A stretch of 64,000 nt of DNA from an uncultured Gammaproteobacteria bacterium. Lineage in GTDB: Bacteria > Patescibacteriota > Patescibacteriia > Magasanikbacterales > GWA2-37-8. Of this stretch, positions 3,074 through 23,022 are shown piece by piece. The stretch covers positions 268,830-332,829 of the forward strand of contig CAZQUL010000001.1 of assembly GCA_964596525.1 (NCBI GenBank), given 5' to 3'. The position numbers and the translations under genes are program-made. The notes beneath the pieces were generated by a model. The model saw only the letters and a list, made by a program, of their open reading frames with translations, was not told where the DNA came from and ran no database searches. Position 1 is the stretch's first letter. Every line of letters starts with the position of its first letter.

Positions 3074-4108
3074 CTACCAATCGAGCGTGCCACCCACCTG
3101 GTACTCGGTGACGCGCGTTTCGAAGAAGTTTTTTTCTTTGCTCAAGTCGACCGCTTCGCTCATCCACGGGAAGGGGTTGGCCACGTTGTACTGCGCCGGG
3201 AGTCCGATGCGCGTGAGGCGGCGGTCGGCGATGTATTCGATGTACTGTTTAAAGCCGTCGGCGTTCATGCCGAAAATGCCTTTAGGGAAGACTTCTTGCG
3301 CGAACGTGTATTCGAGTTTTACCGCCTGATTCACGAGATCGATGATACGGGTTTGGAAATCCGGGGTCCAGAGTTCGGGCTGTTCTTCTTTGATGGTGTT
3401 GGCGAGGTTAATGCCGAAGTTGAGGTGCTGGCTTTCATCTCTCATAATGTACTGGATCTGCTCGGCCGCACCGCACATCTTGCCCATACGCTGGAATCCG
3501 AACATGACCGCGAACGAACTGTAGAAGAAGATACCTTCGAGGATGACGGAAAAGACGACGACGTTCTCGAGGAATTTCTGGTCGGCTTCGAAGGTGCCGG
3601 TTTTAAACTGCGGATTGAAGATGCCTTCGTTGAATCCGAGGATGAAGGCGTCTTTATTGTAGATGGCATCCACTTCGCGGTACATGTTGAAGATCTCGGC
3701 TTCATCGAGACCGAGACTTTCTACGATGTACTGATAGGCATGCGTATGGATAGCTTCTTCGTAACCCTGGCGCAAGAGGTACATGCGGCATTCCGGCGAC
3801 GTGATGTGGCGGTAGAACGCGAGCACGATGTTGTTGGCCGCGATGGAATCGGCGGTGGTAAAGAATCCAAGCACGGTTTTGAGCGCTTTGCGTTCATCGT
3901 CATTAAGAAGCGTCGGTGATTTCCACTGTTCAATGTCTTTCTGCATGCTGATTTCGGTGGGGAGCCAGTGGTTGGCGTTGCCGGTGTTGTAAGCATCCCA
4001 CGCGAATTTATGACGCATGGGGTAGAGTTGCATCACGTCCGCATCGGTGCCATTGATGACACGGCGTTGGTTGATGTCGATTTTTTGGGAGGTTTTGGAA
4101 ATGGGCAT
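3074..4108 (-). CDS. nrdB: ribonucleotide-diphosphate reductase beta subunit (class Ia R2)
   Basis: Di-iron/tyrosyl-radical ligand motifs: EEAIHTHAYQYI, FYSSFA and VILEGIFF...GFQ. Confidence 0.9.
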   Translation of the reverse strand: MPISKTSQKIDINQRRVINGTDADVMQLYPMRHKFAWDAYNTGNANHWLPTEISMQKDIEQWKSPTLLNDDERKALKTVLGFFTTADSIAANNIVLAFYRHITSPECRMYLLRQGYEEAIHTHAYQYIVESLGLDEAEIFNMYREVDAIYNKDAFILGFNEGIFNPQFKTGTFEADQKFLENVVVFSVILEGIFFYSSFAVMFGFQRMGKMCGAAEQIQYIMRDESQHLNFGINLANTIKEEQPELWTPDFQTRIIDLVNQAVKLEYTFAQEVFPKGIFGMNADGFKQYIEYIADRRLTRIGLPAQYNVANPFPWMSEAVDLSKEKNFFETRVTEYQVGGTLDW

Positions 4109-4118
4109 AAGTATGAAA

Positions 4119-4152
4119 GGACGTAGGTTGTAGGTGTGTAGGGAGTAGAGAA
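4119..4152 (+). repeat. left inverted-repeat flank of the four-helix-bundle cassette (CGTAGG..GTAGGGAGTAG)
   Basis: ggacgtaggttgtaggtgtgtagggagtagag is the reverse complement of the motif at 4555..4580. Confidence 0.6.
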
Positions 4153-4179
4153 AATTCTTTACTCCCCACTTTTTACAAC

Positions 4180-4548
4180 CTAGGGTGATTTTATTTTTTG
4201 CAAGAGGACATTTAGCATTTTCATGATTTCTTCGAGTTTTAGCTCTAGGGCTTTCGGCACTAAATCTTTTCCCCAGGATAGCCGTTTTACTATCTCGAGA
4301 TGAGTCTCCAGCTCTGCACCAGAACCGTAAGAGAATGATACGAATTGAGTATAGTAATTTCCTCCTCTACGATATCCTTCGGCCAGATTGGCGGGTATAG
4401 AGACGCTCGCTCTACGAATTTGAGATGTCAATCCATACAATTCTGATTTTGGAAAAGCTTCGGTCAACTCATAGAGTTCGGTGGCCAACTCTACAGACTT
4501 CTGCCAAACCTTTAAATCCCTGTATGAATTAATAATATTTTGCTGCAT
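4180..4548 (-). CDS. four-helix-bundle protein of the 23S-rRNA-intervening-sequence protein family (PF05635/TIGR02436-like)
   Basis: 122 aa, all-helical. Conserved LKVWQKS..EL...L...FP..E.YGLTSQIRRAS.SIPANLAEG motif. Confidence 0.75.
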   Translation of the reverse strand: MQQNIINSYRDLKVWQKSVELATELYELTEAFPKSELYGLTSQIRRASVSIPANLAEGYRRGGNYYTQFVSFSYGSGAELETHLEIVKRLSWGKDLVPKALELKLEEIMKMLNVLLQKIKSP

Positions 4549-4554
4549 ACGTAA

Positions 4555-4580
4555 GTCCCTACTCCCTACGCTCCTACGAA
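4555..4580 (-). repeat. right inverted-repeat flank of the four-helix-bundle cassette
   Basis: gtccctactccctacgctcctacg. Its reverse complement, cgtaggagcgtagggagtagggac, matches the 4119..4152 flank. Confidence 0.6.
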
Positions 4581-4587
4581 CTATCTC

Positions 4588-9307: not shown

Positions 9308-9982
9308 TTACGGGCTAAAAGTAAGTGTCTGTACTATTTTTTTAATTTGATCGTACGAAAAATTCGTTTCATCAAAGACAAGTGCGGCGACGGGGAACGA
9401 AGCATTTTTTAAAGGAATCAAAACGGTAATAAAACGGGGCCTTCCCTCATTCCATTCGTAAAAAAACTGCACACCATCTCGGTATAGAGAAATCGTCCTT
9501 CGACCGAGGACAAAGGATTCAAGAAAATTAAAACTTTTGAACTTGTAAATTCCCAACGGAGATACAATGAGACTGGTTGAAGCAAATGGGGAAAAAGCTC
9601 CATCATAGGAAAAATCGGGTGATCGCGCAACTACGGTTACGCGCACCTGATCATTCATGGCAGCAGAAACATACGATTTCATATGAGGACCATCACAACG
9701 GCTTTCAGCTTTTGCGCAATCCTCAAGCCCACCCCGTATTTCTAAATCGCGAAATGGCAACCTCATCTCAAATCCCAATTCTTGGAATTCATACAAAGGC
9801 CATTCACTGACCGGACGATCTATCAGTAAATTAAAAGTTGTTGAAGATTGGACAATTACGGCGGGAGTAGAACTCGAAGAAGTCATTGTATCGGGCTGTT
9901 CGGAAGACGGTTTGGACAGACAACTAGCTCCAAGCATGAGTCCGATGAGTCCGGTTATAGCCAGCAAGTTAGTTTTTTTCAT
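9308..9982 (-). CDS. lipoprotein, function unknown
   Basis: Start at MKKTNLLAITGLIGLMLGASC (lipobox) inside ORF 9308..10078. Ser/Thr-rich linker. Confidence 0.6.
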   Translation of the reverse strand: MKKTNLLAITGLIGLMLGASCLSKPSSEQPDTMTSSSSTPAVIVQSSTTFNLLIDRPVSEWPLYEFQELGFEMRLPFRDLEIRGGLEDCAKAESRCDGPHMKSYVSAAMNDQVRVTVVARSPDFSYDGAFSPFASTSLIVSPLGIYKFKSFNFLESFVLGRRTISLYRDGVQFFYEWNEGRPRFITVLIPLKNASFPVAALVFDETNFSYDQIKKIVQTLTFSP

Positions 9983-10079
9983 AGTGTTGGTAGTGTTGTA
10001 CTTAGACTTAATATCACAGGCATTATGAAATTGTCTTAAAATATTTCTACGGTTCTTACTATGACCAATCCTCTTCATC

Positions 10080-11363
10080 TCAAAAAGCTACCACTTCTCC
10101 CAAATCACCACTCGCAATCTTTTCCTTTCGATCAAAGGTTCCTTCTACACGCCATAGAGTAGACGAGGCTCCGTAACCTTCGCGCACAATACTGAATCCT
10201 TTTGCTGGACCGCCCGATAAAACTTCTTCACGTATATACGAATAGCGCACGGATGAAGACACAAACGTGGCTGTTTTTTTGTTGGTATCGACGAGGAATG
10301 TTTTAACGATGACGGGAAGCTGCTCTTGAGTATCGATATCAATTGAAATGATATGTTGGCCAGTTGAGGGATTTAATTTCCAATCACCAACCCACGGGTA
10401 GCTACTACTCACTACCAGAGGAATTATAGCCGTACGCATAAAGTTCGTATCGTAAAGTTCGAGCCGGGGAATGGGATCTATTTCCGGAGAAGCTTCATCC
10501 CACATGGTACGAAAAGCGAGCACATGCCGAGCGTCAGAGAAACCGAGAACATCAAGCCCGCCTTCGATACTCGGAGTATTAATCGTTTTACTAAGGACTT
10601 TTCTCTGATTATCATAAACACTCCATCCTCCCCCTTCGTAGTATCCTAGCTGAAGAAGCGCAAAACGCCGGTCCATCGTCCAATCCAGGAAGCGGTATGA
10701 CAAGCACGCGCTTACGGTAAATTCAGGACGCGTGAATAATCTTTGTGAGTTCGTATTATATACTTTTCCGGTGTCGGCTATAAAAAAGAGTTCGTGAGGC
10801 TTTAAAAATTGTACGCTTCTAACCATGCCATTGGTTTTTTTGGTTTGGAAGACAATTTTTCTTTGTTTGGTTTTAAGGTTGTAGAGGACGAGAGTGTCAC
10901 CGGAAAGGTCTGTACAGTCGAGGGCCATGCCGGAAAGAGAAGCAAAATCGAGGGGTTTAGCCCGGTATGTATAGGCGAGCCATGTTTTACTAGGTGAAAG
11001 AACGAGATGACGAATAGGGAATTTTTCGTCCAAAATCTTTATCAGATGTATTGAAGATGAAATGTCCGCGCGCCAGATCGTTCTGTCTTCACTATATATG
11101 ATATTTTTTGAGGCGCCGTTAGCAGAAATAACGGTGGCCCCCGGTGGGAGCACGCGGGGGTCGGGAGTTTCAGGTATTGATGAAGGTGCGGAATCCGCTG
11201 CCGTTGCAGCAGACTCTACGGATTGAGGGAGTGGGACGGGAGGCTGAACATTACGAGGTGGGACAGACACAGAATCTCGCCCTACAAACGCGATAAAAAT
11301 ACTTATAACAACGATACCGACAAAACCTGTACCGATTAAGATAATGCGCTGTGTTAGATTCAT
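10080..11363 (-). CDS. membrane-anchored protein with a Pro-rich linker and a beta-rich extracellular domain, function unknown
   Basis: N-terminal TM segment IILIGTGFVGIVVISIFIAFV, then a P/S/A linker, then a ~330-aa hydrophilic domain. Confidence 0.6.
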   Translation of the reverse strand: MNLTQRIILIGTGFVGIVVISIFIAFVGRDSVSVPPRNVQPPVPLPQSVESAATAADSAPSSIPETPDPRVLPPGATVISANGASKNIIYSEDRTIWRADISSSIHLIKILDEKFPIRHLVLSPSKTWLAYTYRAKPLDFASLSGMALDCTDLSGDTLVLYNLKTKQRKIVFQTKKTNGMVRSVQFLKPHELFFIADTGKVYNTNSQRLFTRPEFTVSACLSYRFLDWTMDRRFALLQLGYYEGGGWSVYDNQRKVLSKTINTPSIEGGLDVLGFSDARHVLAFRTMWDEASPEIDPIPRLELYDTNFMRTAIIPLVVSSSYPWVGDWKLNPSTGQHIISIDIDTQEQLPVIVKTFLVDTNKKTATFVSSSVRYSYIREEVLSGGPAKGFSIVREGYGASSTLWRVEGTFDRKEKIASGDLGEVVAF

Positions 11364-11526
11364 AGATACAAGACGCTTGAAATGACTGGAATGACTTTAG
11401 TATACCAGCCCAACCAAAAACACCGACGCGCAGTCGATGTTTAGAGAAATTGTACAGCGTGAAAAAATGTGCGCAAGGCTTTGGTGTGGACAAGAAATAC
11501 ATGCGCAGTTACAGCTTGACAAAATG

Positions 11527-11555
11527 ACGTAAAATAGCTATACTTTGGAGTTATT
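11527..11555 (+). promoter_or_regulatory. sigma70-type promoter (TTGACA-17-TATACT)
   Basis: Consensus -35, 17-nt spacer and TATACT -10, about 80 nt upstream of the ATG at 11638. Confidence 0.5.
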
Positions 11556-11637
11556 TCTGGAGAACGATTGCTGTCTTGGGCACCTGTATCTCTGGTGTCA
11601 AAGCTCATCAACCGTTCAGACTACGGAGGAACAAACC

Positions 11638-12474
11638 ATGGGACGTGCAAACTTTTGGACCGATCAGGCTGCGAAAGAAGGTTGGAAGACGTTTCTCGCC
11701 ACCTTTCCGCACCGGCGCTTCGTCGTGGGACTCGCGCATATCGCAGCATTTCTCGCAAAGCGCGGTAGCACGTCCCTGGACTGGGATCCGTTCATTGCAA
11801 CCACACGTACTCTGGCGGACAAATACCTGGTCGTTGACACGGAAGAGGACCTGCAGTGCCACACCTTCGTGACGGAGGGCGGCACTCATACCGTGGACGA
11901 GCCCACCATGCGCGCTGCATGGGCCGGATGGTACGAAGCTTGCCGGATTCACCAGCTCTCGCGTACGTTCACCACCGACGACCTGCGTGCTGCGTATCCC
12001 AGTACGAACGTGCTCTGCCTGACGATCAACTTCGCCCGGGCATGCCTCGAGAGCCCCTTCATGCAGGGCAAGGCCGATGAGGTAGAGAGAGCGACCGTGC
12101 TGGTCGAGGATCTGCTCCGTTCGAGCTACAGGAAAGCCATTCAGCTCCCATCGCGGGAGGTCATGAGGCACCCGGAATACGTTGCGCTGGAAATGGCCGA
12201 TGCTGCGTACTGCAATCGCTGGTTCGCGCTCATTCCCTGCTGGCACGAACGCTGCGCTGACACGGCGCAGGGCCGACACGCCCACATTCTGCCGTGGGAG
12301 TGGCCGCACTGGGCCGAGCCGGAGATCGACTTTCCGACTATCCGCTCGCGGCATCAGGGCGAACGTGTCATTACCGAGCGCTTCGGCAACCGCAAGCTGG
12401 GACCAAGCGCCTTTCAGGAACTCCTGAACAGCCTGGATCGTTCCGGTCTGCCGCAGATCCTGCCGCTCCGGTAG
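11638..12474 (+). CDS. hypothetical protein (high GC, no recognisable domain)
   Basis: GGAGG RBS 8 nt upstream of the MGRANFWTDQ start. 278 aa, Trp/Cys/His-rich. Confidence 0.55.
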   Translation: MGRANFWTDQAAKEGWKTFLATFPHRRFVVGLAHIAAFLAKRGSTSLDWDPFIATTRTLADKYLVVDTEEDLQCHTFVTEGGTHTVDEPTMRAAWAGWYEACRIHQLSRTFTTDDLRAAYPSTNVLCLTINFARACLESPFMQGKADEVERATVLVEDLLRSSYRKAIQLPSREVMRHPEYVALEMADAAYCNRWFALIPCWHERCADTAQGRHAHILPWEWPHWAEPEIDFPTIRSRHQGERVITERFGNRKLGPSAFQELLNSLDRSGLPQILPLR

Positions 12475-12548
12475 CGCACCTTCCCGCCAGATATCAAGCC
12501 GAGCACTCAGTTGCTCGGTTTTCGTTTTCTTTGTACGCTAGTTGCACT

Positions 12549-13382
12549 ATGCCCTCCCCTACCCTGCGTGAACTCAGAAAATTCCAGCGAACGGTTTGGG
12601 ATTTTTATGACAAAAATAAACGCGCCTTCGCCTGGCGCGAGACGACGGATCCGTACCAGATAACGGTGTCGGAAATCATGCTGCAGCAAACGCAGACCGA
12701 GCGAGTGGCAAAAAAATTCCCGGAATTCTTGGCAGCGTTTTCGACCTGGAAAAAACTTGCCGACGCTCCGCTCCCCGACCTTTTACGCGTGTGGCAGGGC
12801 ATGGGTTACAACCGCCGCGCCATCGCGCTTCAAAAAATCGCAGTGCGCGTAGTGAACGAATTTGAAGGACAGCTTCCCAACAATCCGGAAATACTCGAAA
12901 CGTTTCCCGGCATCGGACCCAACACCGCCGGTTCCATCTGCGCCTTTGCCTTCAACGCGCCGACGGTATTCATCGAAACCAATATTCGCGCGGTATTTCT
13001 GCATCATTTTTTTGCCGATCAAACCAAGGTGCACGACAAAGAATTACTGCCGATCGTAGAAGCCGCGCTCGTTACCGAACGTGCGCGTGAATGGTACTAC
13101 GCGCTTATGGATTATGGCGTGTATCTTAAAAAACTCCACAAAAATCCCGCACGGCGCAGTGCGCACCACGCGCGACAATCCGCATTCGAAGGTTCGGACC
13201 GGCAAATCCGGAGCGGAATTTTGAAACTGTTATTAAAAATGACAGAGGCGTCGCTTGAAACCATTTTTGGAAACTTTCCCGATACCGACAACGAGCGCGT
13301 GGAGCGTTTGCTTGGACAGCTGGTACACGAAGGCTTTGTAGCGAACGAAAAAGGCATTTTTTGCATCCGTTCGGAAAAATAA
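12549..13382 (+). CDS. HhH-GPD superfamily DNA glycosylase (MutY/Nth-like N-terminal domain, no Fe-S cysteine cluster)
   Basis: ITVSEIMLQQTQTERV...GMGYNRRA...FPGIGPNTAGSICAFAF...IETNIRAV aligns with the helix-hairpin-helix and Gly/Pro-Asp region of EndoIII/MutY. No C-x6-C-x2-C-x5-C cluster at the C-terminus. No catalytic Lys in the GIGPNTA motif, so probably monofunctional. Confidence 0.7.
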   Translation: MPSPTLRELRKFQRTVWDFYDKNKRAFAWRETTDPYQITVSEIMLQQTQTERVAKKFPEFLAAFSTWKKLADAPLPDLLRVWQGMGYNRRAIALQKIAVRVVNEFEGQLPNNPEILETFPGIGPNTAGSICAFAFNAPTVFIETNIRAVFLHHFFADQTKVHDKELLPIVEAALVTERAREWYYALMDYGVYLKKLHKNPARRSAHHARQSAFEGSDRQIRSGILKLLLKMTEASLETIFGNFPDTDNERVERLLGQLVHEGFVANEKGIFCIRSEK

Positions 13383-13437
13383 AAAGGAGGCTGGAAATTC
13401 CAACCTCACTGTGGGGGCGAATATGCGCCGTAAAATG

Positions 13438-13632
13438 CTAGCGCGCGGAGAAGCTGCGGCGGGGCAGGGTTTCAACGGCCGTGATCAGCTCGTTGCAGCT
13501 ATAGCCGACGATCCCATTGATAATGAGGAATAGAAGTGCGATGCCCGCTTTGGACAGCGGGCGATTGCGCGAAAACGATTCGTCGTCAGGCCTAGACGGT
13601 TCTTTAGAAACTCGAAACGAAGACATGTACAC
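13438..13632 (-). CDS. possible small membrane protein (64 aa)
   Basis: GGAGGTG RBS 6 nt upstream of the ATG. One TM segment, AGIALLFLIINGIVGY. Confidence 0.35.
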   Translation of the reverse strand: MYMSSFRVSKEPSRPDDESFSRNRPLSKAGIALLFLIINGIVGYSCNELITAVETLPRRSFSAR

Positions 13633-13687
13633 CTCCAGGGCAGGATACTACGTGTTTTTTTGCGTTTCGTCAAGGTTTAAAGGCGCA

Positions 13688-13722
13688 AAACTAAAAGCAA
13701 ACGACCGGCGTTGAGCCGGTCG
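13688..13722 (-). terminator. rho-independent terminator
   Basis: cgaccggc-gttga-gccggtcg hairpin; a T-rich tract follows on the minus strand, downstream of the 13754 gene. Confidence 0.6.
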
Positions 13723-13753
13723 GGAGGAGCGCTCGCGTGTAGCGGCGAGCGTA

Positions 13754-14947
13754 TTAGATCTTACGGAAGACGGTGTAGTGGATGGCAAGATCCTTCGTGC
13801 GAAACGCGGCAACGGTTCGCCTGAATATCACCCGATCACCGTGACGAGGGCTTTTTTCTGTCAGCTGCCTCATGTTGTACAGAAAAATCGCCTCACCCAC
13901 GACGACGATCGCTTCGAAGATGGGCGGTCCCCCTTCATCGCCCTCAACCTTGGTGATCTTTTCTACCGTACCCACGGCACACCCTGCTTTGGCCAGCCGC
14001 CTTTCCAAATACTCCTTAACGTTAGGCGGGAAATCAGCCCATCTCATGCAGGCCGTACGATACAACCCGACGAGATCCGTTTCACGATCGAGAAGTTCAT
14101 CAATGGCCACGGCTTCGTTTGGAGTTGCGGCGTGCGAACGAAGTGCCCACAGCCACAAGAGCGGCGCTTTCGCTCCCGCACGGCGGCGGACGTTATGAAC
14201 GATCTGCCACTGCGTCTTAATCTCGAGCGAGCGCAACTGACTGATCGTAAGTGATTCGACATCATCGAGCGACTGCACCGCATGTTCGATGAGTTGGCGG
14301 GCATTTTCTCCGGAACCGAGCCCGGCTCCGATGTAATCCGGGTAGATAAGGCCAATCTCCGGATGCTTGCGGAGCGCGACCTCAAACAGCGGCACGAGCC
14401 ACTCACCGGGGAACTTGTGAAAGTCGCACTGCGGCCAGTTCTTGATAGTCTCGACGATGCAGTCGGTCTTACCGCGCTCGGGCGTGACGCTCTCGAACCT
14501 CTGGCAGACGAGCGCGAGAACATGCTGACGGGGAATGCCGGCGTGAAGCAGCGCACCGACATGCTGCGCACTGCCCCAGCGCACGAAGTATTCGTCAGCA
14601 AATTCCTTCGCCGCGGCGGGCGTGGGGAAAAGGATCTTGAACGTGCGCTTGTCCGCCATATAGATCTGGAAAACGCGCGCCGCCGGATACGATCGGATAA
14701 ACGCGAGCGGGTCGTCGATAAGACCCTTAAAGTCATGGGGAAAGCGCCAGAGCACGTCACCACCGATCGAAAGATCGTGGGCATGAGCGCGTTCATCATC
14801 GGTCCAGATAGCTTCGATCATCTCCTCAACCGACAAGCCGCCGGTGATTAAAGCATTTTCCAATCTTTCGCGGAATTCTTTGATTTCCGAAGGGTTGGTT
14901 AACACGGTGGGTTGAGGCAGGATAGGAACGCACGACGTATCGTTCAT
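13754..14947 (-). CDS. hypothetical protein (397 aa, high GC)
   Basis: GAGG RBS. Start MNDTSCVPIL inside ORF 13754..15055. No recognisable motifs. Confidence 0.55.
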   Translation of the reverse strand: MNDTSCVPILPQPTVLTNPSEIKEFRERLENALITGGLSVEEMIEAIWTDDERAHAHDLSIGGDVLWRFPHDFKGLIDDPLAFIRSYPAARVFQIYMADKRTFKILFPTPAAAKEFADEYFVRWGSAQHVGALLHAGIPRQHVLALVCQRFESVTPERGKTDCIVETIKNWPQCDFHKFPGEWLVPLFEVALRKHPEIGLIYPDYIGAGLGSGENARQLIEHAVQSLDDVESLTISQLRSLEIKTQWQIVHNVRRRAGAKAPLLWLWALRSHAATPNEAVAIDELLDRETDLVGLYRTACMRWADFPPNVKEYLERRLAKAGCAVGTVEKITKVEGDEGGPPIFEAIVVVGEAIFLYNMRQLTEKSPRHGDRVIFRRTVAAFRTKDLAIHYTVFRKI

Positions 14948-15080
14948 GATTTTACCTCTCACGTACGGGTTTACGAAGGCGGAAAAGAACGGTTTCAGCT
15001 GTCGATTTCTGCTAGCGCATAAACAAAAATCGGCAGCCAAAGTACGCGTCACCATATCACGGACTATTCGTTATGTCAAT

Positions 15081-15100
15081 CATTTATCTACTCCCTACGC
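15081..15100 (-). repeat. solo copy of the CGTAGG..GTAGGGAGTAG motif
   Basis: The plus strand reads actccctacgctccgacg, the same orientation as the right flank at 4555..4580. Confidence 0.45.
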
Positions 15101-15107
15101 TCCGACG

Positions 15108-15144
15108 TTCTATTCCCTAAAAACACAAAAGCCGTCACACGAGG
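15108..15144 (-). repeat. duplicated terminator (37-nt identical repeat, copy 1)
   Basis: ctaaaaacacaaaagccgtcacacgaggtaacggctg is identical to 16424..16460. On the minus strand it forms the gccgt..acggc hairpin plus T-run 3' of paralog A. Confidence 0.7.
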
Positions 15145-15211
15145 TAACGGCTGAGAATGAACAAAAGGGAATGAAAGTTGGAATCGAACTAAAGGCGAGA
15201 AGCGGTAGGCA

Positions 15212-16186
15212 CTACAGGTTCTCGACGAGGCAGGATCCCGTCTCGCCCATGTAGAGCGTGGTGCAGGGATCGCTCTCGAGCTGGCCGTCCTGGCGGAGGT
15301 AGGCCTTGCGGACCTGGACGTTCGCGCCGGTGCGCAGTACGGCGACCTCGTCGCCCGTACGACCCACGGTGTAGATCTTGTTGGGCGCGGCCGGAACCGT
15401 GACGCAGGTGCCCGTGGCGTTGCAGACGTTGACGTTACCACTCACGACGGTGAGGGCGATGAGGCCGAGGTAGACACGGCTCGTTCCCTTCTTCACGAAG
15501 GTGCCGCTGTCCGTCCGATCGAAGGCGTAGGGCGCGTTCCAAGAGAGGGAACGCGGGTCAGCGAGAGTCGACGGGCCCTGGACGCACACGAGGGTGGGGT
15601 CGGTCATGTCGCGCACGGCGGAGCTGCACGGGATGATCGGGGCGACGTACGGGCAGCCGCGGCGGTTCGGATCCGGCGTGGCACCCTGCGCCTCGTCCGG
15701 GCACTGGTCGTCGGCATCCAGCACCCCATCCATGTCGCGATCCTGGGGCATCGGGGTCACGATGGGCATGTCGTTCTTGATGCCCAGGACGACCTCGTCG
15801 ATCTTCTTGAAGGTCCCCTCGAAGCCCGGCGTCGCCAGGTAGGCGCACCAGGCCGGAATGACCTGACCCTGCTCGATCCGGTAGACATACCGGATGTTAT
15901 GCTGGGCGGTGAGCTTCTCCAGACACTGGACCTGGAGCATCTTGTCACCATCCGGGCAGACGACCGCTTCGAACATGATGTCGGCTCCGTAGAAGCTGAT
16001 CCAGCCGCCGGTCTTGGCAGCCTCGGTGCCAGCCTTGTCCATCTTTTCCTGGATGTACATGCCGGCCAGGGAGCTGGGCTTGCCCTCGGTGCAGTAGCTG
16101 ATCTCGCGCTCCGACAGCAGTCCGCAGCCGGACACGAAGGAAGCAAGGCCAACAGCGGCGACCACAAGGCCCTTGGAATTCTTCAT
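15212..16186 (-). CDS. lipoprotein with a thrombospondin-type-3 / OmpA-like calcium-binding repeat (paralog A)
   Basis: AAGGAG RBS. Lipobox LASFVSGC. DRDMDGVLDADDQCPDEAQGATPDPNRRGCP matches DxDxDGxxDxxDxCP. Cys-rich. Paralogous to 16518..17522 and 43193..44119. Confidence 0.75.
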   Translation of the reverse strand: MKNSKGLVVAAVGLASFVSGCGLLSEREISYCTEGKPSSLAGMYIQEKMDKAGTEAAKTGGWISFYGADIMFEAVVCPDGDKMLQVQCLEKLTAQHNIRYVYRIEQGQVIPAWCAYLATPGFEGTFKKIDEVVLGIKNDMPIVTPMPQDRDMDGVLDADDQCPDEAQGATPDPNRRGCPYVAPIIPCSSAVRDMTDPTLVCVQGPSTLADPRSLSWNAPYAFDRTDSGTFVKKGTSRVYLGLIALTVVSGNVNVCNATGTCVTVPAAPNKIYTVGRTGDEVAVLRTGANVQVRKAYLRQDGQLESDPCTTLYMGETGSCLVENL

Positions 16187-16517: not shown

Positions 16518-17522
16518 CTACAGTCCCGACGGGCGGCAGGAGTCGGTGATCATGTTGTCCAGCGTGGTGCAGACCATGCTCTTGGTCACGCCATCCTCGT
16601 AGTAGGCGATCCGGAACTTGGTACCGGCGACGTCCGGGCGGACCGAGACGTACTCGTCACCCGGACGACCGATGGCGAAGATGGTGTTGGCCTTGTTCGT
16701 GAACGAGCTGCAGACGCCGTTCGCGGAGCAGGCCTGGAAGGAGCCGCTCAGGAAGGAGCCGCCGCTGTCGAGGACGATGATGCCGGCGATGATGCGCTTG
16801 CCCTGGACCATCTGCCAGGTGCCGCTCGCGGCCTGATCGAAGGCGTAGGGCGCGGTCCACGAGGTGGTGCGCAGCACGCCGATCTTGGAGGGGTTCTGCA
16901 CGCAGGCGCGCGAGCCGTCATTGCTCCAGCCGAGCGCGCTGCACGTCTCGATGGGCATGGTCGTGCCCGGGCAGCCGCGGCGCATTTGGTCCGGGTTGGC
17001 ACCGGCCACGGTGTCGGGGCAGACGTCGTCCTGATCGCGCACGCCGTCCTGGTCACGATCCGGGCAGCCCTGGAGGGTGCCGGCCGTCATCGGGCACTGG
17101 TCGTGCTCACCGAGGTATCCGTCCTTGTCCGGGTCCGCGGCCGGGTTCATCGGATCGAGCGAGGCGATGACCGTCTGGATGTCCTGGTCGTTCGGGTGGG
17201 CCAGGCACGAGGTCGGCGCGCTCTCACCCTTCGTCACGCGCCGCACGAGGGGCGAGTACTCCGGGGTCGTACGGTTCCAGAGGCAGGCGCGCTGGTCGAG
17301 GACGTTCTTGTCCGAGCAGCACGCGACCGCGCCGGTCTTCATGGTCCAGACGCAGTAGCCGCCATCGGTGGCGCAGGCGGCGTTGCACTCCTTGGCGCTC
17401 TTCTCGTAGGCCGCGCGCTCGGGAGCGTTCCCGGGCATGTCGCAGAGATCAGCGGTGCAGCCATTCAGAGCCACCATGAAAAGCACGGTGAAAAGGCACG
17501 CAAGGCTTCGAGCGATGAACAT
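16518..17522 (-). CDS. lipoprotein with two TSP3-type calcium-binding repeats (paralog B)
   Basis: GAGAGG RBS. LACLFTVLFMVALNGC. DPDKDGYLGEHDQCP and DRDQDGVRDQDDVCPDTVAGANPDQMRRGCP. The C-terminal half aligns with paralog A (WTAPYAFD..SGTW...VLDSGGSF). Confidence 0.75.
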   Translation of the reverse strand: MFIARSLACLFTVLFMVALNGCTADLCDMPGNAPERAAYEKSAKECNAACATDGGYCVWTMKTGAVACCSDKNVLDQRACLWNRTTPEYSPLVRRVTKGESAPTSCLAHPNDQDIQTVIASLDPMNPAADPDKDGYLGEHDQCPMTAGTLQGCPDRDQDGVRDQDDVCPDTVAGANPDQMRRGCPGTTMPIETCSALGWSNDGSRACVQNPSKIGVLRTTSWTAPYAFDQAASGTWQMVQGKRIIAGIIVLDSGGSFLSGSFQACSANGVCSSFTNKANTIFAIGRPGDEYVSVRPDVAGTKFRIAYYEDGVTKSMVCTTLDNMITDSCRPSGL

Positions 17523-17711: not shown

Positions 17712-19271
17712 CTACATTCTCCAGGCGACCATAAGGCCACGCCATGCCTTGACCAGCTCTTCGCGGCCATCGTGGCGGGCACGCTGAGAAGCATGGCGCA
17801 GCGCCTGGCGCAAACGTGTTCCAAAAGGATAGTGGCGCCGCAGCACCTTGAGCACCTCCCCCACCTCATCGACAAACTCGAGAGCCCGGGTGAGGTTGGA
17901 ATTATGCTCGGAGATTCCCAAGAGCCCATCAGCCAAGAAGCCTTCCAGATCGACACGCAGGGCTTCAGTGACAATCTCGGGGCCGAGCTCGGTGGCTTTG
18001 GCACTGGCGAACCACCCGATACCAATAGCGATATCGCGCTTCCAACGAGGCGTTTCGGGCTTGTCGGCGTAGGGGCTGCCGGGCATAAGGAGCGGCGCGA
18101 CGCTAAGGTAATACATCACGCGGCGGCGGATGGCGGCGGCGTTCAATTCTGGATCAACGCCGGGCCGCTTGCGCACCTCGTTGAGTATCTCGTGCAGCTC
18201 CGGGTTGGTAAGGAGCGTTTCTGCCGTCGTGATGGGCTCTACCGGGACCTCGGCGATGAGGCGCTCGACGATCCGGTTGCACTGCTCGGGTGTCAGATCG
18301 GCTGCAGAGCGCAGCAGGTCTTTGGTGGAAAGAGCGACAGGAGCAGATTCGGTTCTTTCTGCCGATGCCACCAGGGGGGCAAACACGCCCATATCAAGTG
18401 CACGTGGGTGGTAGATGGTGATAAAATTCCGCGTCGCATGAGGCATTCCCTCGGTCCATTCACCGCGCAACGCATGGAACTGCCTGCCGGCGATAACACC
18501 CTTCACACGCCAGGGGGTTTCATCGAGCGCACAGCACGCGTCCTGCAGATCCGTAAGTGTCACCGTATCACTGAGCACGTAATTATAGGTAAAGACGCCG
18601 TGGTTATGATCTTCTCTTGAAGAGGACGGGTGCGGGTCGTGGTGATGATGCGCGCAGTGCGCGATGCGGCACTGCAATTCCTTCGCTACCGGACGCTCCA
18701 AAAGGAGCTCGGACGGCAATCCGTGGCCCGAGGGGATGAGAAACAAAGGAATGCCCTGGGCATGGTGCGCAACGTATTCCACCATTTCCTCAATCGCAGC
18801 ATCGGTAATCGCGGCGACCGACGAAGGAAACTTGGTGAAGCCGACGCCGAGCGTGGCAGCCCGGAGCTGGCTAGGAACAATCGCGCCGAGCTCGCGGTTG
18901 GCAGCGAAGTGCCGCACATCCACGAGGGTGATGACAAGCGGATCAAGACCAACGCTCCGAAGCACGGACGGCGCTTCGTCACCCGCGATAAAACCATAGG
19001 GCTCGACAATGAGCCATTCGTAGCGACCGGAAGCAGCGATGTGGCGAAAAACCCGCCGCGCAGACTCCTCATCACGGCAACCAAAGCAGCCGCTGTTGAG
19101 GGTGACGATATCGGCACTGCCAACGAGCGCGGTCGCGTCAGTGGTAGCGCGCGTCCCATCGTCGTTGCAGACGACAGCTACGGTTCCTGGCAGGACGTTG
19201 TGGTTCAGAGTTTCACGAATGAAAGTCGTTTTGCCCGCTCCGGGCGGGCCGAGAATGAGCAGCGTGCGCAT
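17712..19271 (-). CDS. COG0523 (CobW/ZigA/YjiA-type) metal-chaperone GTPase, long form with His-rich segment and ~200-aa C-terminal extension
   Basis: P-loop GPPGAGKTT. GCFGC (CxCC metal-binding motif). HCAHHHHDPHPSSSREDHNHG His-rich stretch. CobW_C-like region, then an extra domain of unknown fold. Confidence 0.8.
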   Translation of the reverse strand: MRTLLILGPPGAGKTTFIRETLNHNVLPGTVAVVCNDDGTRATTDATALVGSADIVTLNSGCFGCRDEESARRVFRHIAASGRYEWLIVEPYGFIAGDEAPSVLRSVGLDPLVITLVDVRHFAANRELGAIVPSQLRAATLGVGFTKFPSSVAAITDAAIEEMVEYVAHHAQGIPLFLIPSGHGLPSELLLERPVAKELQCRIAHCAHHHHDPHPSSSREDHNHGVFTYNYVLSDTVTLTDLQDACCALDETPWRVKGVIAGRQFHALRGEWTEGMPHATRNFITIYHPRALDMGVFAPLVASAERTESAPVALSTKDLLRSAADLTPEQCNRIVERLIAEVPVEPITTAETLLTNPELHEILNEVRKRPGVDPELNAAAIRRRVMYYLSVAPLLMPGSPYADKPETPRWKRDIAIGIGWFASAKATELGPEIVTEALRVDLEGFLADGLLGISEHNSNLTRALEFVDEVGEVLKVLRRHYPFGTRLRQALRHASQRARHDGREELVKAWRGLMVAWRM

Positions 19272-19346
19272 GTTCAGCTCCTTGGCACGATAGTAAGAAA
19301 GATCGGCTACCGGTGATTCTTATCACAAGCAGCGGTCTCTTGCCAA

Positions 19347-19952
19347 CTAGCCCGCCATATCCTCCCATTTTGCCACGCGGCCATCGCGGATATAAAACTC
19401 ATGCTTGGACCATTCCTGCAAAAACGTTTCATCATGCTCGAGCGCGCGCACTGCCGGATGATTGATGAGCGTGGACATATCGGCAGCTCCGGGAAACGCA
19501 GCAGAGTCGGTAAGTTGCATGCCGCTCGTACGAGCCAGATACTCGTTTAAAAACGTAAAACGCTTAGTGCATATATAGCCGGGTTTTGAACAGTGGGTAC
19601 GAAAATCAGCGATCGTCGCGATTTCTTGCGGGGTACCGCGGTAAGCTTCACGTTTGTAGTTCATCCAGACGGCAGGCGTGTCGTACTGCATCGCGTCGCC
19701 CAGGAGTTTGAGGCGCGCTGTAAGTGAAGCGAGGCGTCGTATGAGCATATCACGATGGACGGATGGCACAGGTGATGCCAAAACTGCCGCAAGCGTCGTG
19801 TTGGCGGTTTGCGCTTCGAGCGAGGCAGCGGAAAGAAGTGCGGTTTCAACCATGGTTTTCTCACGTTCATACGCTGCGTATACTGCGTAAAGGCGGAGCA
19901 CTTCTTCGGTCAGACGCTCAGTTGAAAGCGGTTGTGAGTGTTTCAAATCCAT
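19347..19952 (-). CDS. hypothetical protein inside the metal operon (201 aa)
   Basis: Tightly packed between the two COG0523 genes (gaps of 1 and 75 nt). No recognisable domain. Confidence 0.55.
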   Translation of the reverse strand: MDLKHSQPLSTERLTEEVLRLYAVYAAYEREKTMVETALLSAASLEAQTANTTLAAVLASPVPSVHRDMLIRRLASLTARLKLLGDAMQYDTPAVWMNYKREAYRGTPQEIATIADFRTHCSKPGYICTKRFTFLNEYLARTSGMQLTDSAAFPGAADMSTLINHPAVRALEHDETFLQEWSKHEFYIRDGRVAKWEDMAG

Positions 19953-19953
19953 A

Positions 19954-20877
19954 TCAGGGAAAAAAGCGCTGAATAAGTTCCGGGGTTACGCTGGGGCCAA
20001 GCGCAACTACAACAGCTTTAACCGACCGTGTGGTGATGTCTATATCATAATGATTGGCGGTCGCCTCGAGGTGCGCCATGGTACCGTCAACAAGCGGCAG
20101 GTATCCTTTCAGGCGGTCGGGACGGGTGGCGGCGTCGCTTAGCATGGCACGGACAGCGTCCTCTAGGGCCGCGCGCGAAGCAGCATGAGACGGATAATGA
20201 ATCGCATAACGCACTGCATGTGCCGCCGCGCGCGGCAACGCCAGGATGGCAGCCAAACGCCGCTCGACCGCGCTTGACGATGCTTCGGCCAATTTTTCCC
20301 AGGGTGCTCGACCGCGTTCTACGGCCCAGACTGACCCTGGTCCGAGCAGATTCTCAACACTATCCTGATACGTAGCCACGCGCTCCGGACCAATCTTATC
20401 GATTTTGTGCACGACAACGATATCGGAACTCAGAATATCGGCTTTTCTTTTTGCAGAAACATCTTCTACCGAAACAACCAGCGGATCGAGAACGAAAACG
20501 CTGTGCTTGAGTTCGAACTGCAGCACAAACGTGGGCGACAGATAGAGCTTGGTAAGGAGTTCGGCTGCAGAAGCGACGCCGGTGGTTTCGATGATAACAG
20601 GTTTAGCCCATTTTTTTTCGGCAATAGCGGCGAGAACTTTTTCTAAATCTTCTTCGGACGAACAGCAGACGCACCCGCCGGTAATGGCAGCGAGCTCACT
20701 GTCATGCGTATCTTCGGCCAACGTAAGCTGGTCGATATTCTCGGGCGCGAATTCATTTTCGATGATAAACGAGCCCCGGAACGGAGCGGTTTTGAGAAGT
20801 TCTTTGAGCACAGTGGTTTTGCCACTACCGAGCGTGCCGTGAAAAAGATACAAAGGAATACGCGACATACAAGACAT
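19954..20877 (-). CDS. COG0523 (CobW-family) metal-chaperone GTPase, short form
   Basis: P-loop GTLGSGKTT. GGCVCCS (CxCC). Dxx(G) region and a CobW_C-like tail. Confidence 0.8.
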   Translation of the reverse strand: MSCMSRIPLYLFHGTLGSGKTTVLKELLKTAPFRGSFIIENEFAPENIDQLTLAEDTHDSELAAITGGCVCCSSEEDLEKVLAAIAEKKWAKPVIIETTGVASAAELLTKLYLSPTFVLQFELKHSVFVLDPLVVSVEDVSAKRKADILSSDIVVVHKIDKIGPERVATYQDSVENLLGPGSVWAVERGRAPWEKLAEASSSAVERRLAAILALPRAAAHAVRYAIHYPSHAASRAALEDAVRAMLSDAATRPDRLKGYLPLVDGTMAHLEATANHYDIDITTRSVKAVVVALGPSVTPELIQRFFP

Positions 20878-20879
20878 GA

Positions 20880-21701
20880 TCAGGGTTTTTTCTTGAACAT
20901 AATGTACGAATTGGCCATCAATTCCGGATCATAGGGCTTAACCGTGAGCTGGATTTTGAGCGGTCCGTAATCTTTTTCCGGTACTGGCTGGTACATGAGC
21001 GTCTTAAGATCATGGGCCGTGCGGGCAAGAACAACCGCTCCCATGGGCGCTGTCCGGGCGATGCGGCGCAGAAGACGGATTTTCTCACGCTCATGTTCGC
21101 CAACAAGCGATGCGGCGACGATGACATCATAGGGCTGATAGTCGAACGTGAACGCATCGGCCTTAATGAAGCGTACTTTGGTACTATAGCCAATCGTTTT
21201 TATAAACGCACGTCCTTGGTGAAAGGCTGCTTCTTCGATCTCGAGCGTGTCGACGCGCACACCGAAATAGTCGGCCATAAGAACTGCAGTGAGGGGTAGC
21301 GGACCAGCGCCCACAAATAAACAGCGTCGGGCCGGACGCCCGCCCAAAAGAATTTTAAGATCATCGAAGCTGATGGAGGCGGTACGGGCAAAAGCTTGAT
21401 AATAGGTGTAACCGCGCAAAGCAGCGCGGCCCGAGGTTCTGGATGCGAGAATTTTTTTTGACCAGTACCATTCGGAGAGCGTTTCAATATGCGCGGAAAT
21501 GGCACGAAAGCGGGGTGCAAGGCGCTCTATGACCGGCCGCTCCAGAAGCGCGCGGACGATTTCCGGCCGGCGTTCCAAGCATACCTTCCGGAAACGAAAA
21601 AACAGGCGATCGGCAACGTGAGGCAGAGCGTCGTGCGCCGCACCAAGCTGCGCGCATAAAGAGATAAGCACACGCTCCAAACGATCGACCGCCTGTTTCA
21701 T
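20880..21701 (-). CDS. nicotianamine-synthase-like (NAS/CntL-like) SAM-dependent aminobutyryl transferase
   Basis: RCLFVGAGPLPLTAVLMA matches the hallmark VGSGPLPLTS motif of plant and archaeal NAS and bacterial CntL. Size (273 aa) fits archaeal/bacterial NAS. Confidence 0.65.
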   Translation of the reverse strand: MKQAVDRLERVLISLCAQLGAAHDALPHVADRLFFRFRKVCLERRPEIVRALLERPVIERLAPRFRAISAHIETLSEWYWSKKILASRTSGRAALRGYTYYQAFARTASISFDDLKILLGGRPARRCLFVGAGPLPLTAVLMADYFGVRVDTLEIEEAAFHQGRAFIKTIGYSTKVRFIKADAFTFDYQPYDVIVAASLVGEHEREKIRLLRRIARTAPMGAVVLARTAHDLKTLMYQPVPEKDYGPLKIQLTVKPYDPELMANSYIMFKKKP

Positions 21702-21705
21702 ATAG

Positions 21706-22311
21706 TTAGTGTTCCGGAATAAACATCCCTACCGCCCAACCGACAAGAATGACGGCGCCTAACGCAATGAATTTCACCGCGGTCGGCACGCGCTTGCCAG
21801 AGTGCTTGATGATGATACCGGCTTCGATATAGGCGGTAGCAAAAAGCGCTGCCGCTGCCGCACCGGCGGCACCGACATGCACTGCTTCGGCGTAGGTCTG
21901 TGCTACCGGACCAATAAGCACGCCACCCGCAACGCCGGCAATAACGCCCAAACCGATCCGCGCCGCAAACCAGGCCCTTCCGGCCCGGCGCACTTCGCGG
22001 ACGATATGCCGCACAAAAACCAATTCGTGAGCAATGATCGCCACAACGAGTACGGGGTTTTTGAGGGCGAGCGCGGCACCCAGGAGGACCGCATCGCTCA
22101 CATGATGCATCTGCCACACGCGGTGATGGAGCGTTGGGCGCGACGGATGCTCGTGATGATCGTCATGGTCATCAGGTACGATCAAAAACGACACGACGAA
22201 AAACGTGACAGCGAAGATGAACGGATGGTGATGGGTTTCTCGCAGCAATACGCCGCCGCCAAGCGCACTTAACGCTGCAGCGCCGAAAGGAAGAAGGTAG
22301 GTGGTAAACAT
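21706..22311 (-). CDS. His-rich polytopic membrane protein, putative divalent-metal transporter (family uncertain)
   Basis: About 6 TM segments. THHHP at TM1. Loop PDDHDDHHEHPSRPTLHHRVWQMHH. It is the first gene of the operon. No canonical ZIP (HNxxDG/HExxHE) or HupE motifs. Confidence 0.5.
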   Translation of the reverse strand: MFTTYLLPFGAAALSALGGGVLLRETHHHPFIFAVTFFVVSFLIVPDDHDDHHEHPSRPTLHHRVWQMHHVSDAVLLGAALALKNPVLVVAIIAHELVFVRHIVREVRRAGRAWFAARIGLGVIAGVAGGVLIGPVAQTYAEAVHVGAAGAAAAALFATAYIEAGIIIKHSGKRVPTAVKFIALGAVILVGWAVGMFIPEH

Positions 22312-22317
22312 GAGAAT

Positions 22318-22347
22318 ATGTTAATGCAACTGTGTTGCGTTTGTCAA
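22318..22347 (-). promoter_or_regulatory. promoter with palindromic operator in the spacer (TTGACA - TGCAAC aca GTTGCA - TAACAT), leaderless start
   Basis: Minus strand reads cTTGACAaacgcaacacagttgcatTAACATattctcATG. The 5-3-5 inverted repeat gcaac-aca-gttgc sits between -35 and -10. No RBS; the start codon is about 6 nt after the -10. Confidence 0.45.
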
Positions 22348-22479
22348 GAGCTGCTTAAAAACCTGAATATTACTGCATTACAAGGAGAAGGGCGGGCCTA
22401 ATCAGTCGTCTAACTTCTAGAGCGGGGTGATGATGTCTGAATACGAAAAGCTCCGTGGATGACGGAGCTTAGGAGAAAT

Positions 22480-22890
22480 CTATGCAGCCCGGTTAAAGAG
22501 CGGTGAGAGAATTTGGTTGAACGCCGGCTCCTCGCGCGCCAGCATAAAATAGAGCTGGGTATCCCTGATGTCGCGGACGATGCGCTCGAAAATACGCTCC
22601 CGCTCAATTTCGAAATCCGGCCGGAACAAATACGTCCAGAGCGCCCAGTTGGCCACAAGGGCAAACAGGAAGCCGGCCGCGAAAGCGAGCGCGAGCGAGC
22701 AGCTCTTGGCAAACATGATGACGAACAGGAACGGCATGGTGACCACCGCGACGATGCCGTATATGCGGGGCCATGCCCACAGAGCGCACACCGTACTTAG
22801 CGAGTGGTAGAGTGAAAAGGCTGCTTCCCGATCTTCCGGAGGCAGCCGCTCAAGGCGGGGCAACGTTTTTTCCGGGTGTAAATAAAGCAT
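22480..22890 (-). CDS. small membrane protein, function unknown
   Basis: GGAGGTG RBS 5 nt upstream of MLYLHPEK. Three hydrophobic segments. Confidence 0.55.
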   Translation of the reverse strand: MLYLHPEKTLPRLERLPPEDREAAFSLYHSLSTVCALWAWPRIYGIVAVVTMPFLFVIMFAKSCSLALAFAAGFLFALVANWALWTYLFRPDFEIERERIFERIVRDIRDTQLYFMLAREEPAFNQILSPLFNRAA

Positions 22891-23022
22891 TAGACACCTC
22901 CGCTCATAGTGTGCTCTTTTCACCAAACCGCGACAACCCCGGAGTGCATAATCGCGCAGTTATCCACCCATCGAACGGTGCTCTCAGGGGGCATGTTATG
23001 ATGTAAGGGACATAGAGAGCAC

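Follow-up and report, generated by a model that had tools for sequence, protein, structure and literature searches.

A five-gene operon, g1 to g5, lies on the minus strand of the 64-kb stretch of contig CAZQUL010000001.1 that was analysed here (the whole stretch is called the window below). It encodes a nicotianamine synthase (NAS)-like enzyme, two GTPases of the COG0523 type, a protein without annotation and a His-rich membrane protein, and it seems to represent a response to scarce zinc that has not been described before. A preliminary description of the same DNA had proposed a metal-limitation operon behind a repressor operator. The features of the locus, in the direction of transcription, are as follows.

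22470-22448: terminator of the upstream gene, preceding the operon promoter
22318 to 22347, minus strand: sigma-70-type promoter, TTGACA (22347-22342), an 18-nt spacer and TAACAT (22323-22318), matching the consensus at 10 of 12 positions
22321 to 22343: operator, a 23-bp Fur-family (probably Zur-type) box, CAAACGCAAC-ACA-GTTGCATTAA, with its core repeat at 22326-22338
g1, 21706 to 22311, minus strand: open reading frame (ORF) of 201 amino acids (aa), lineage-specific His-rich polytopic membrane protein
g2, 20880 to 21701, minus strand: ORF of 273 aa, NAS-like aminobutyryl (3-amino-3-carboxypropyl) transferase dependent on S-adenosylmethionine (SAM)
g3, 19954 to 20877, minus strand: ORF of 307 aa, short COG0523 G3E GTPase with Walker A and CxCC motifs
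g4, 19347 to 19952, minus strand: ORF of 201 aa, unannotated NAS-associated family, with a long N-terminal helical hairpin and a conserved core at about residues 84-198
g5, 17712 to 19271, minus strand: ORF of 519 aa, long divergent COG0523-type NTPase, CxxC, His-rich, with a helical C-terminal extension of about 200 aa
17679 to 17701, minus strand: terminator-like hairpin, AAAACGGCC-CUACC-GGCCGUUUU followed by a U-run, at the operon end

The five genes are co-directional with intergenic gaps of 4, 2, 1 and 75 nt, in agreement with the range of 1 to 75 nt given earlier, and the single TTGACA-18-TAACAT promoter reported in the preliminary description was located with both hexamers and the spacer. 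The g1 start codon (ATG, 22311) lies 6 nt past the -10 hexamer and is not preceded by a Shine-Dalgarno sequence. The spacing fits the leaderless first gene that had been proposed, and a leaderless start of the operon mRNA is plausible from the sequence rather than proven. Of the five genes, g5 alone is preceded by an evident Shine-Dalgarno sequence, AAGGAG, at a distance of 7 nt from its ATG. Between g4 and g5 (19272-19346, minus strand) there is also a small palindrome, GTGAT-AAGA-ATCAC, which may be due to chance or may be an internal regulatory element. The G+C-rich 9-bp hairpin starts 10 nt past the g5 stop codon and folds with -15.3 kcal/mol (z = -2.7). Plus-strand ORFs that overlap the region have no support and were treated as shadows of the coding strand. 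With one promoter, tight spacing and a terminator, the five genes form a real operon.

The Pfam NAS profile (PF03059) matches residues 28-272 of g2 with 93.7 bits (gathering score 27.1), which bears out the assignment of g2 to the NAS-like enzymes. The VGAGPLPLT motif noticed earlier is part of the SAM-binding loop FVGAGPLPLT, which starts at F129 and in which G131, G133, L135 and P136 occupy invariant or near-invariant columns. A family alignment and profile were built from g2 and 27 relatives. The profile matches the archaeal thermonicotianamine synthase MtNAS (3fpe) at 1.7e-41 and Staphylococcus aureus CntL at 9e-16. The catalytic Glu is present: E77 of g2 aligns in an invariant column with E81 of MtNAS (E77 of AtNAS1), the residue altered in the E81Q crystal variants of MtNAS. 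R227 and other invariant NAS positions are also retained.

Relatives of the operon were collected with the g4 alignment in a scan of one genome per GTDB species. This gave 80 loci, nearly all labelled Saccharibacteria, whose ORFs were searched with the window proteins and their Nanosynbacter counterparts; loci with at least 1.9 kb upstream of g4 (n = 69) were counted as informative. The gene order NAS-cobW-g4 is present in 69/69 informative loci, and the operon core recurs in at least 69 species of the ultra-small Saccharibacteria. Of 68 loci, 66 have a Fur-family gene next to the module (divergent in 62, co-directional in four). TerC follows g4 in 64 of the 80 loci and a second cobW gene is found in 56. 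The closest relative found, locus L162 (GCA_052035445.1), reads FUR-NAS-cobW-g4-g5-like, the gene order of the window, with the Fur-family gene at the position held by g1 in the window. Its proteins share 40% (g3), 38% (g4) and 59% (g5 N-terminus) identity with those of the window. Judged by its nearest homologues, at 31-59% identity, the window probably has an affinity to Saccharibacteria. The module is also carried by the oral Nanosynbacter genome L002 (CP040004, 'Candidatus Nanosynbacter featherlites'). In Southlakia epibionticum, a genetically tractable Saccharibacterium studied by transposon sequencing, the only protein with a cobW domain is SEML1_0302 and PF03059 is not listed (PMC10633639, supplementary file 2), so the module is absent from this model organism; it is widespread and not universal. 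The proposed association of these genes was thus found again in other genomes, for g2, g3 and g4 in every informative locus and for g5-type GTPases in L008, L162 and L168.

We consider g4 the most informative gene of the operon. It has no match in Pfam or NCBIfam, as its earlier label "unknown" implied; beyond that label, the comparative data identify it as a likely dedicated partner of NAS. An AlphaFold2 model of g4 has a confidence (pLDDT) of 90.7. R118, H120, C121, K123-P-G-Y-I-C128-T-K-R131, W181, E185 and K195-W196 are invariant in the family alignment; the core FRxHCSKPGYICTKRFxF is almost invariant, together with W96, Y99-K100 and the W181, E185 and K195-W196 positions. Two of the 149 top-ranking NAS cluster representatives other than g2 are NAS::g4 fusion proteins, P0089 (437 aa) and P0110 (425 aa). 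Their g4 parts show 39-40% identity over about 115 residues (BLASTP 2e-31 and 2e-32). In L168, a NAS::g4 fusion follows a g5-type GTPase, with a divergent Fur-family gene. In L165 and L166, NAS is divergent from a NikR gene and is followed by two tandem g4 homologues, with no cobW gene. The signature H-C-x6-C-x-(K/Q)-R is retained in P0089, P0110, the L168 fusion and the L165/L166 homologues. NAS and g4 appear to be the functional core of the module because they occur as fusion proteins and because they pair without cobW in L165; since g4 accompanies NAS where the GTPase is absent, NAS is presumably its primary partner. On this comparison g4 defines a new protein family, marked by the invariant signature H-C-x6-C-x-K-R. 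The Nanosynbacter genes cobW and g4 share 4 nt, where the stop codon of the first meets the start codon of the second. The arrangement in L165 (5526-7852) and L166 also places a NAS-g4 pair under a different metalloregulator, the nickel-responsive NikR, in another lineage.

The short GTPase g3 matches the cobW profile (PF02492) at 1.5e-29 and has the Walker A sequence G14TLGSGKTT and the metal motif C69VCC. CxCC is kept in 78 of 82 g3 orthologues, which lie between NAS and g4 in all 69 informative loci. The cobW match of g5 is weaker (9.2e-16, residues 4-141). Both proteins had been described as CobW-type GTPases with CxCC motifs. The family assignment holds for both and the motif for g3; g5 has C62-F-G-C65, a CxxC motif, and its homologues likewise lack CxCC and carry CFTC instead. 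The second profile suggested for these proteins, CobW_C (PF07683), gave no match to g3 or g5 at E <= 1; the C-terminal domain of g3 may be divergent. The His-rich HCAHHHHDPH of g5 and its uncharacterised C-terminal domain are present as reported, and the last 200 aa or so have no Pfam match, though they are conserved among homologues. An NKxD-like motif was searched for in g5 and none was found, and a PDB search with g5 returned only the G-domain of YjiA, weakly (6e-5). A scan of JGI metagenomes for g5 relatives found none; they were found instead as NAS neighbours. A g5-type GTPase of 552 aa lies directly upstream of NAS in L008 (33% identity over the whole length), a full-length one of 554 aa lies directly upstream of NAS in L168, and a g5-like N-terminal fragment follows g4 in L162. 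We rate g5 as the representative of a new long His-rich COG0523 subfamily.

The inverted repeat GCAAC-aca-GTTGC, which had been placed in the promoter spacer, is found there at 22338-22326. The whole operator fills the spacer and overlaps both hexamers. The repeat occurs once in 64 kb with 0.10 occurrences expected, and 10 of 100 shuffled sequences also reach one occurrence. No further copy was found in the window; matches with two mismatches are at chance level. Taken alone the palindrome is weak, and it becomes strong only because of the comparative evidence. Orthologous FUR/NAS promoters carry a conserved 23-bp palindrome, TTATTGCAAC-AAA-TTTGCAATAA, whose variants converge on TTGCAAC-N3-GTTGCAA. 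We built a matrix from 20 distinct orthologous sites, with the most window-like one left out. Its top site in the window is 22321-22343, at 15.0 bits (runner-up 9.3 bits), a score reached anywhere in 2.6% of shuffled windows, and it lies in the only spacer in which one would look for an operator. In L067 the box upstream of FUR-NAS-cobW-g4 is CAAACGCAAC-TAA-GTTGCATTAT, nearly identical to that of the window, and in L002, as read from the sequence, the right half-site also serves as the -35 hexamer of the NAS promoter. It might be argued that the palindrome and the gene clustering are coincidental and that no co-regulated unit exists, given the shuffling result and the lack of g1 homologues. 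The synteny in 69/69 loci, the fusion proteins and the operator at the same promoter position across divergent lineages effectively refute this explanation, to which we give next to no weight.

The genes found behind such boxes elsewhere point to the kind of regulator involved. Metagenome contigs were searched for the exact variant CAAACGCAAC-N3-GTTGCATTA, which gave 74 loci with 25-59% G+C. About 45 of the 74 have a Fur-family gene 10-35 nt downstream of this variant. We sampled ten neighbouring genes in six of these loci. Nine of the ten fall into a few classes: L143 encodes ZnuA together with an ABC ATPase and an ABC-3 permease, and L094 likewise has ZnuA; cobW with CobW_C is found in L157, GTP cyclohydrolase I in L142 and L148, and small MerC-family membrane proteins in L157 and L142. 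The tenth is in L132, where a dihaem cytochrome c/cytochrome b561 protein is encoded divergently from the Fur-family gene. COG0523 genes and folE paralogues are hallmark members of Zur regulons, and znuABC, cobW/CobW_C and GTP cyclohydrolase I together are typical Zur-regulon content. The window operator is most likely a Zur-type box, as judged from these neighbours and from the conserved palindrome.

Some observations were made in passing on these boxes. The MerC-family proteins (132-136 aa, with conserved Cys/His; L157 3643-4047, L142 560-970, L147 10178-10576 and L126 2012-2416) are encoded in loci with the Zur-type box, just upstream of cobW, which looks like a recurrent MerC-like/COG0523 pairing; we found no discussion of such a pairing. 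In L142 the GTP cyclohydrolase I gene sits between the MerC-like gene and cobW. Extra high-scoring operator copies were seen in oral Saccharibacteria, inside cobW coding DNA and just after TerC (L002 at 7595 and 9687; L009 at 5556, 9465 and 10274; L034 likewise), although the A+T-richness of these loci inflates the scores. In L168 (5132-5258), the intergenic region that separates the Fur-family gene from the g5-type long cobW gene holds two copies of the operator, ATGCAAATGATTTGCAAT and ATGCAAATTACTTGCAT.

With moderate confidence we read the locus as an operon for metal limitation, most probably zinc limitation, repressed by a Fur-family (Zur-type) regulator, in which NAS and g4 would make a chelator that is served by the GTPases and g1. 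The original proposal of a metal-limitation operon with a repressor operator, a NAS, COG0523 proteins and an unknown partner is supported in this by the profiles, the synteny and the operator. The operon structure, the protein families, the shared gene order, the NAS-g4 fusion and the conserved operator with its Fur-family, znuABC, COG0523 and folE neighbours are observed directly; from them we infer, as follows, which chemistry and which metal are involved, what g4, g5 and g1 do and where the ligand acts. When metal is sufficient, a dimer of the regulator would sit on the 7-3-7 palindrome in the promoter spacer and block RNA polymerase. When metal is scarce, the five genes would be transcribed as one, probably leaderless, mRNA. 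The products of g2 and g4 would then turn SAM and an amino-acid starter into an aminocarboxylate chelator of the nicotianamine type; to our knowledge, all characterised NAS-family enzymes make metal chelators. The GTPases g3 and g5 may hydrolyse nucleotides in order to pass metal between the ligand, or the His/Cys site of g4, and client proteins, and g1, a lineage-specific add-on, may carry metal or chelate across the membrane.

Several observations weigh against this reading, and the first group concerns g2. The SAM motif and the catalytic Glu expected of g2 are in place, but the catalytic Tyr is not: g2 has F104 at the site of MtNAS Y107 (AtNAS1 Y106), a column that is Tyr in 27/27 aligned relatives. 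It also has Ser111 where 27/27 relatives have Glu. The change Y106F abolished the activity of AtNAS1 (PMC10248798). Of the operon genes g2 has diverged most, with 31% identity to its L162 counterpart (38-59% for the others). The window NAS might thus be a pseudo-enzyme that serves as a ligand binder or scaffold, the operon being a system of COG0523 metallochaperones and a membrane protein; it would fit this view that an unrelated membrane gene adjoins NAS only in the window. We think this unlikely. The g2 ORF is intact, it retains the SAM-binding loop as well as Glu77, R227 and further invariant residues, and the gene is still translationally packed with g3 and g4. In addition, CntL of S. aureus, an active enzyme, has Ile aligned with the catalytic Tyr, so Tyr is not universally required. 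We take Phe104 as a warning and not as a verdict on the activity of g2; it bears in part on the condition about binding residues that the preliminary description had set for its own reading.

The second group concerns the regulator and its metal. No Fur-family gene was detected in the 64-kb window by tblastn, and six regulators from related loci all score below the NCBIfam cutoffs for Fur, PerR, Zur and Irr. The Nur box of Streptomyces coelicolor has the consensus tTGCaa-N5-ttGCAA, and Nur binds Ni through a site with His70, His72 and His126 (PMC2691836). The orthologous boxes, TTGCAA-CAAAT-TTGCAA, share this half-site and the 6-5-6 layout; the window copy, ACGCAA-CACAG-TTGCAT, is degenerate and agrees at 4/6 and 5/6 positions. 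The metal is not fixed by the sequence, the related NAS-g4 pair is NikR-linked, and ZnuA-type ABC systems can carry Mn or Fe. Accordingly the same architecture could have Ni or Co (or Mn or Fe) as its signal or cargo, with a Nur-like or other Fur-family sensor. That the orthologous box equals the Nur consensus (PMC2691836), that a NAS-g4-g4 cluster is divergent from NikR and that the regulators are not assigned to Zur by sequence would all suit such a sensor, as would the ability of Cnt systems to carry Ni and Co as well as Zn. Against it, in five of the six sampled loci the box precedes a Fur-family gene that sits with znuABC, COG0523 or GTP cyclohydrolase I. The regulators score 36-41 bits against Nur (3eyy), no closer than to Fur or Zur structures, and the L002 FUR protein lacks a His at 14-16 residues ahead of its HHHH motif, as judged by spacing and not by structural alignment. 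Nur was considered as the identity of the regulator on account of the box and was rejected as the leading reading in view of the Zur-like regulon content and the missing Ni site. Zur is favoured over Nur because the regulators are no closer to Nur, lack the Ni-site His and fall below all subfamily cutoffs. We regard a metal other than zinc as improbable for the architecture as a whole, and zinc as fairly likely to be the signal metal.

The third group concerns transport. The first gene, g1, encodes 16 His, six to seven hydrophobic helices and loops with THHHP and DDHDDHHEH...HH. The His loop and the helix number agree with the His-rich six-transmembrane protein described earlier, and the transporter role given to it there is unproven. 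Searches with g1 gave no match in Pfam, NCBIfam or PDB and none to a known transporter family or fold, ZIP-type or other; a search of 5.8 billion proteins found no homologue, and the related loci contain none either. As an orphan, g1 stands outside the conserved system, and the word transporter reflects its composition only; it is presumed to be a metal or metal-chelate transporter. More generally, no transporter is conserved with the NAS-g4 core: g1 occurs only in the window, TerC only in the oral clade, and several loci (L031, L053, L069, L076, L085 and L162) have no adjacent membrane protein. These data bear on a classic secreted metallophore, in which the NAS-g4 product would be exported, bind metal and be re-imported, with g1 or TerC as transport components. 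Bacterial NAS-like systems characterised so far are all secreted metallophores (PMC7438024), the operon opens with the gene for the His-rich membrane protein, and TerC follows g4 in most related loci. On the other side, no membrane protein is conserved across the module, the operon encodes neither a solute-binding protein nor an ABC importer nor an MFS/EamA exporter, and the invariant partners are cytoplasmic GTPases. We consider a secreted product somewhat unlikely. A mainly cytoplasmic ligand, for buffering and hand-off of metal, is favoured because no transporter is conserved with the core, and we lean only slightly to it over a secreted and re-imported metallophore.

The last point of this kind is that structure searches with g4 gave no recognisable fold match or catalytic signature. 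For the NAS-g4 pair a more specific proposal can be made, that the two proteins, at times fused, are an unrecognised two-component synthase of a new nicotianamine-type molecule, made without an opine dehydrogenase, and that the COG0523 GTPases, the new long His-rich subfamily among them, load or unload metal directly on this ligand. We offer this tentatively. If true, it would be the first case of a G3E metallochaperone with a metallophore pathway as its partner, and it could be a main zinc-economy device of the ultra-small epibiotic Saccharibacteria, human oral species included.

Comparison with known systems places the operon near, and outside, several of them. The best solved relative of g2 is MtNAS (3FPE), which shares with it and with plant and fungal NAS the PF03059 fold family, the GxGPLPLT motif and the catalytic Glu, and which, like the window enzyme, is a stand-alone NAS without opine dehydrogenase. 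It differs from g2 at the catalytic Tyr. In the literature examined, no link of MtNAS or eukaryotic NAS to g4, COG0523 or a Fur-family operator is described, whereas the window has all three. The Cnt systems (staphylopine, pseudopaline, yersinopine and bacillopaline) also combine a NAS-like enzyme with a Zur/Fur metal-starvation repressor and follow the same logic, an aminocarboxylate chelator made from SAM when metal is scarce. In contrast to CntL, g2 scores 16.4 bits against the NCBIfam model Sta_opine_CntL (cutoff 350) and is nearer to archaeal NAS. Family searches found no CntM, CntK, MFS/EamA exporter or ABC/TonB importer in the window operon; g4 and two GTPases stand where CntM, CntK and the transporters would be. 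The earlier remark that no CntM is visible was confirmed, as no opine/octopine dehydrogenase was found among the five window proteins or listed in the related loci. By analogy, the module seems to function like a Zur-regulated pathway for a NAS/Cnt-type chelator, and it falls outside the Cnt family, since a CntL equivalog, CntM and transporters of its own are all missing.

The GTPases have their own points of reference. Like ZigA, ZagA/YciC, YeiR and ZNG1, g3 has a cobW G-domain, Walker A and CxCC, and like Zur-regulated COG0523 proteins it stands under a box that elsewhere precedes znuABC, COG0523 and folE. No PF07683 domain is detected in g3 or g5, and the scores lie far below the ZigA and CobW equivalog cutoffs. 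A further difference from the Zur-regulated COG0523 proteins is that g3 is always sandwiched between NAS and g4, while g5 is aberrant in its length, its CxxC motif and its additional domain of 200 aa. The pairs UreG-UreE and HypB-HypA offer an analogy only, a G3E GTPase gene translationally coupled to one for a small protein with invariant His/Cys, here g4. In sequence and fold g4 resembles neither UreE nor HypA, and it pairs with NAS where the GTPase is absent (L165).

The earlier statement that this association is not a described one agrees with our literature search. In the openly searchable literature, we found no description of NAS and COG0523 in one cluster or of NAS in Saccharibacteria. 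Where 'nicotianamine synthase' and COG0523 are named in one paper, they figure as distinct Zur targets, in Pseudomonas or plants; the module is not discussed in the Saccharibacteria transcriptome and transposon sequencing (Tn-seq) papers, and neither COG0523 nor CobW appears in the published map of genome neighbourhoods for opine zincophore clusters (PMC7438024). Saccharibacteria, like other Patescibacteria, combine a very small genome with a life attached to host bacteria, and hardly anything has been described of how these organisms acquire and ration trace metals. A SAM-consuming synthase locked to g4 and COG0523 under a metal-sensing operator suggests that metal economy is a selected trait in these organisms. 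Few clients of COG0523 proteins have been identified, and the operon adds a new genetically defined partner set to their biology; it also extends NAS-type chemistry beyond the Cnt paradigm. Among the NAS cluster representatives P0069, P0098, P0181 and P0065, three are fused to a GNAT acetyltransferase domain; in the other, a protein of 2670 aa, NAS is joined to an MFS transporter as well as to a ChaN-like domain for haem binding. These fusions suggest further undescribed variants of NAS-type pathways.

The surroundings of the operon were examined as well. The next gene downstream (16518-17522, minus strand) has a perfect TTGACA-17-TATAAT promoter at 17639-17611. Its product (334 aa) has no Pfam match and is Cys- and Asp-rich and secreted-looking, with DxDxDG-like repeats seen by eye. 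Five of the ten other ORFs scanned in the flanks (9308-16186 and 22480-22926) have no Pfam match, which fits a poorly characterised lineage. These are of 256-433 aa, with, in addition, a membrane-looking protein of 148 aa just upstream of the operon. Further along, at 3074-7470 on the minus strand, both subunits of ribonucleotide reductase, large and small, are encoded, and Pfam matches two ATP-cone stretches in the large one.

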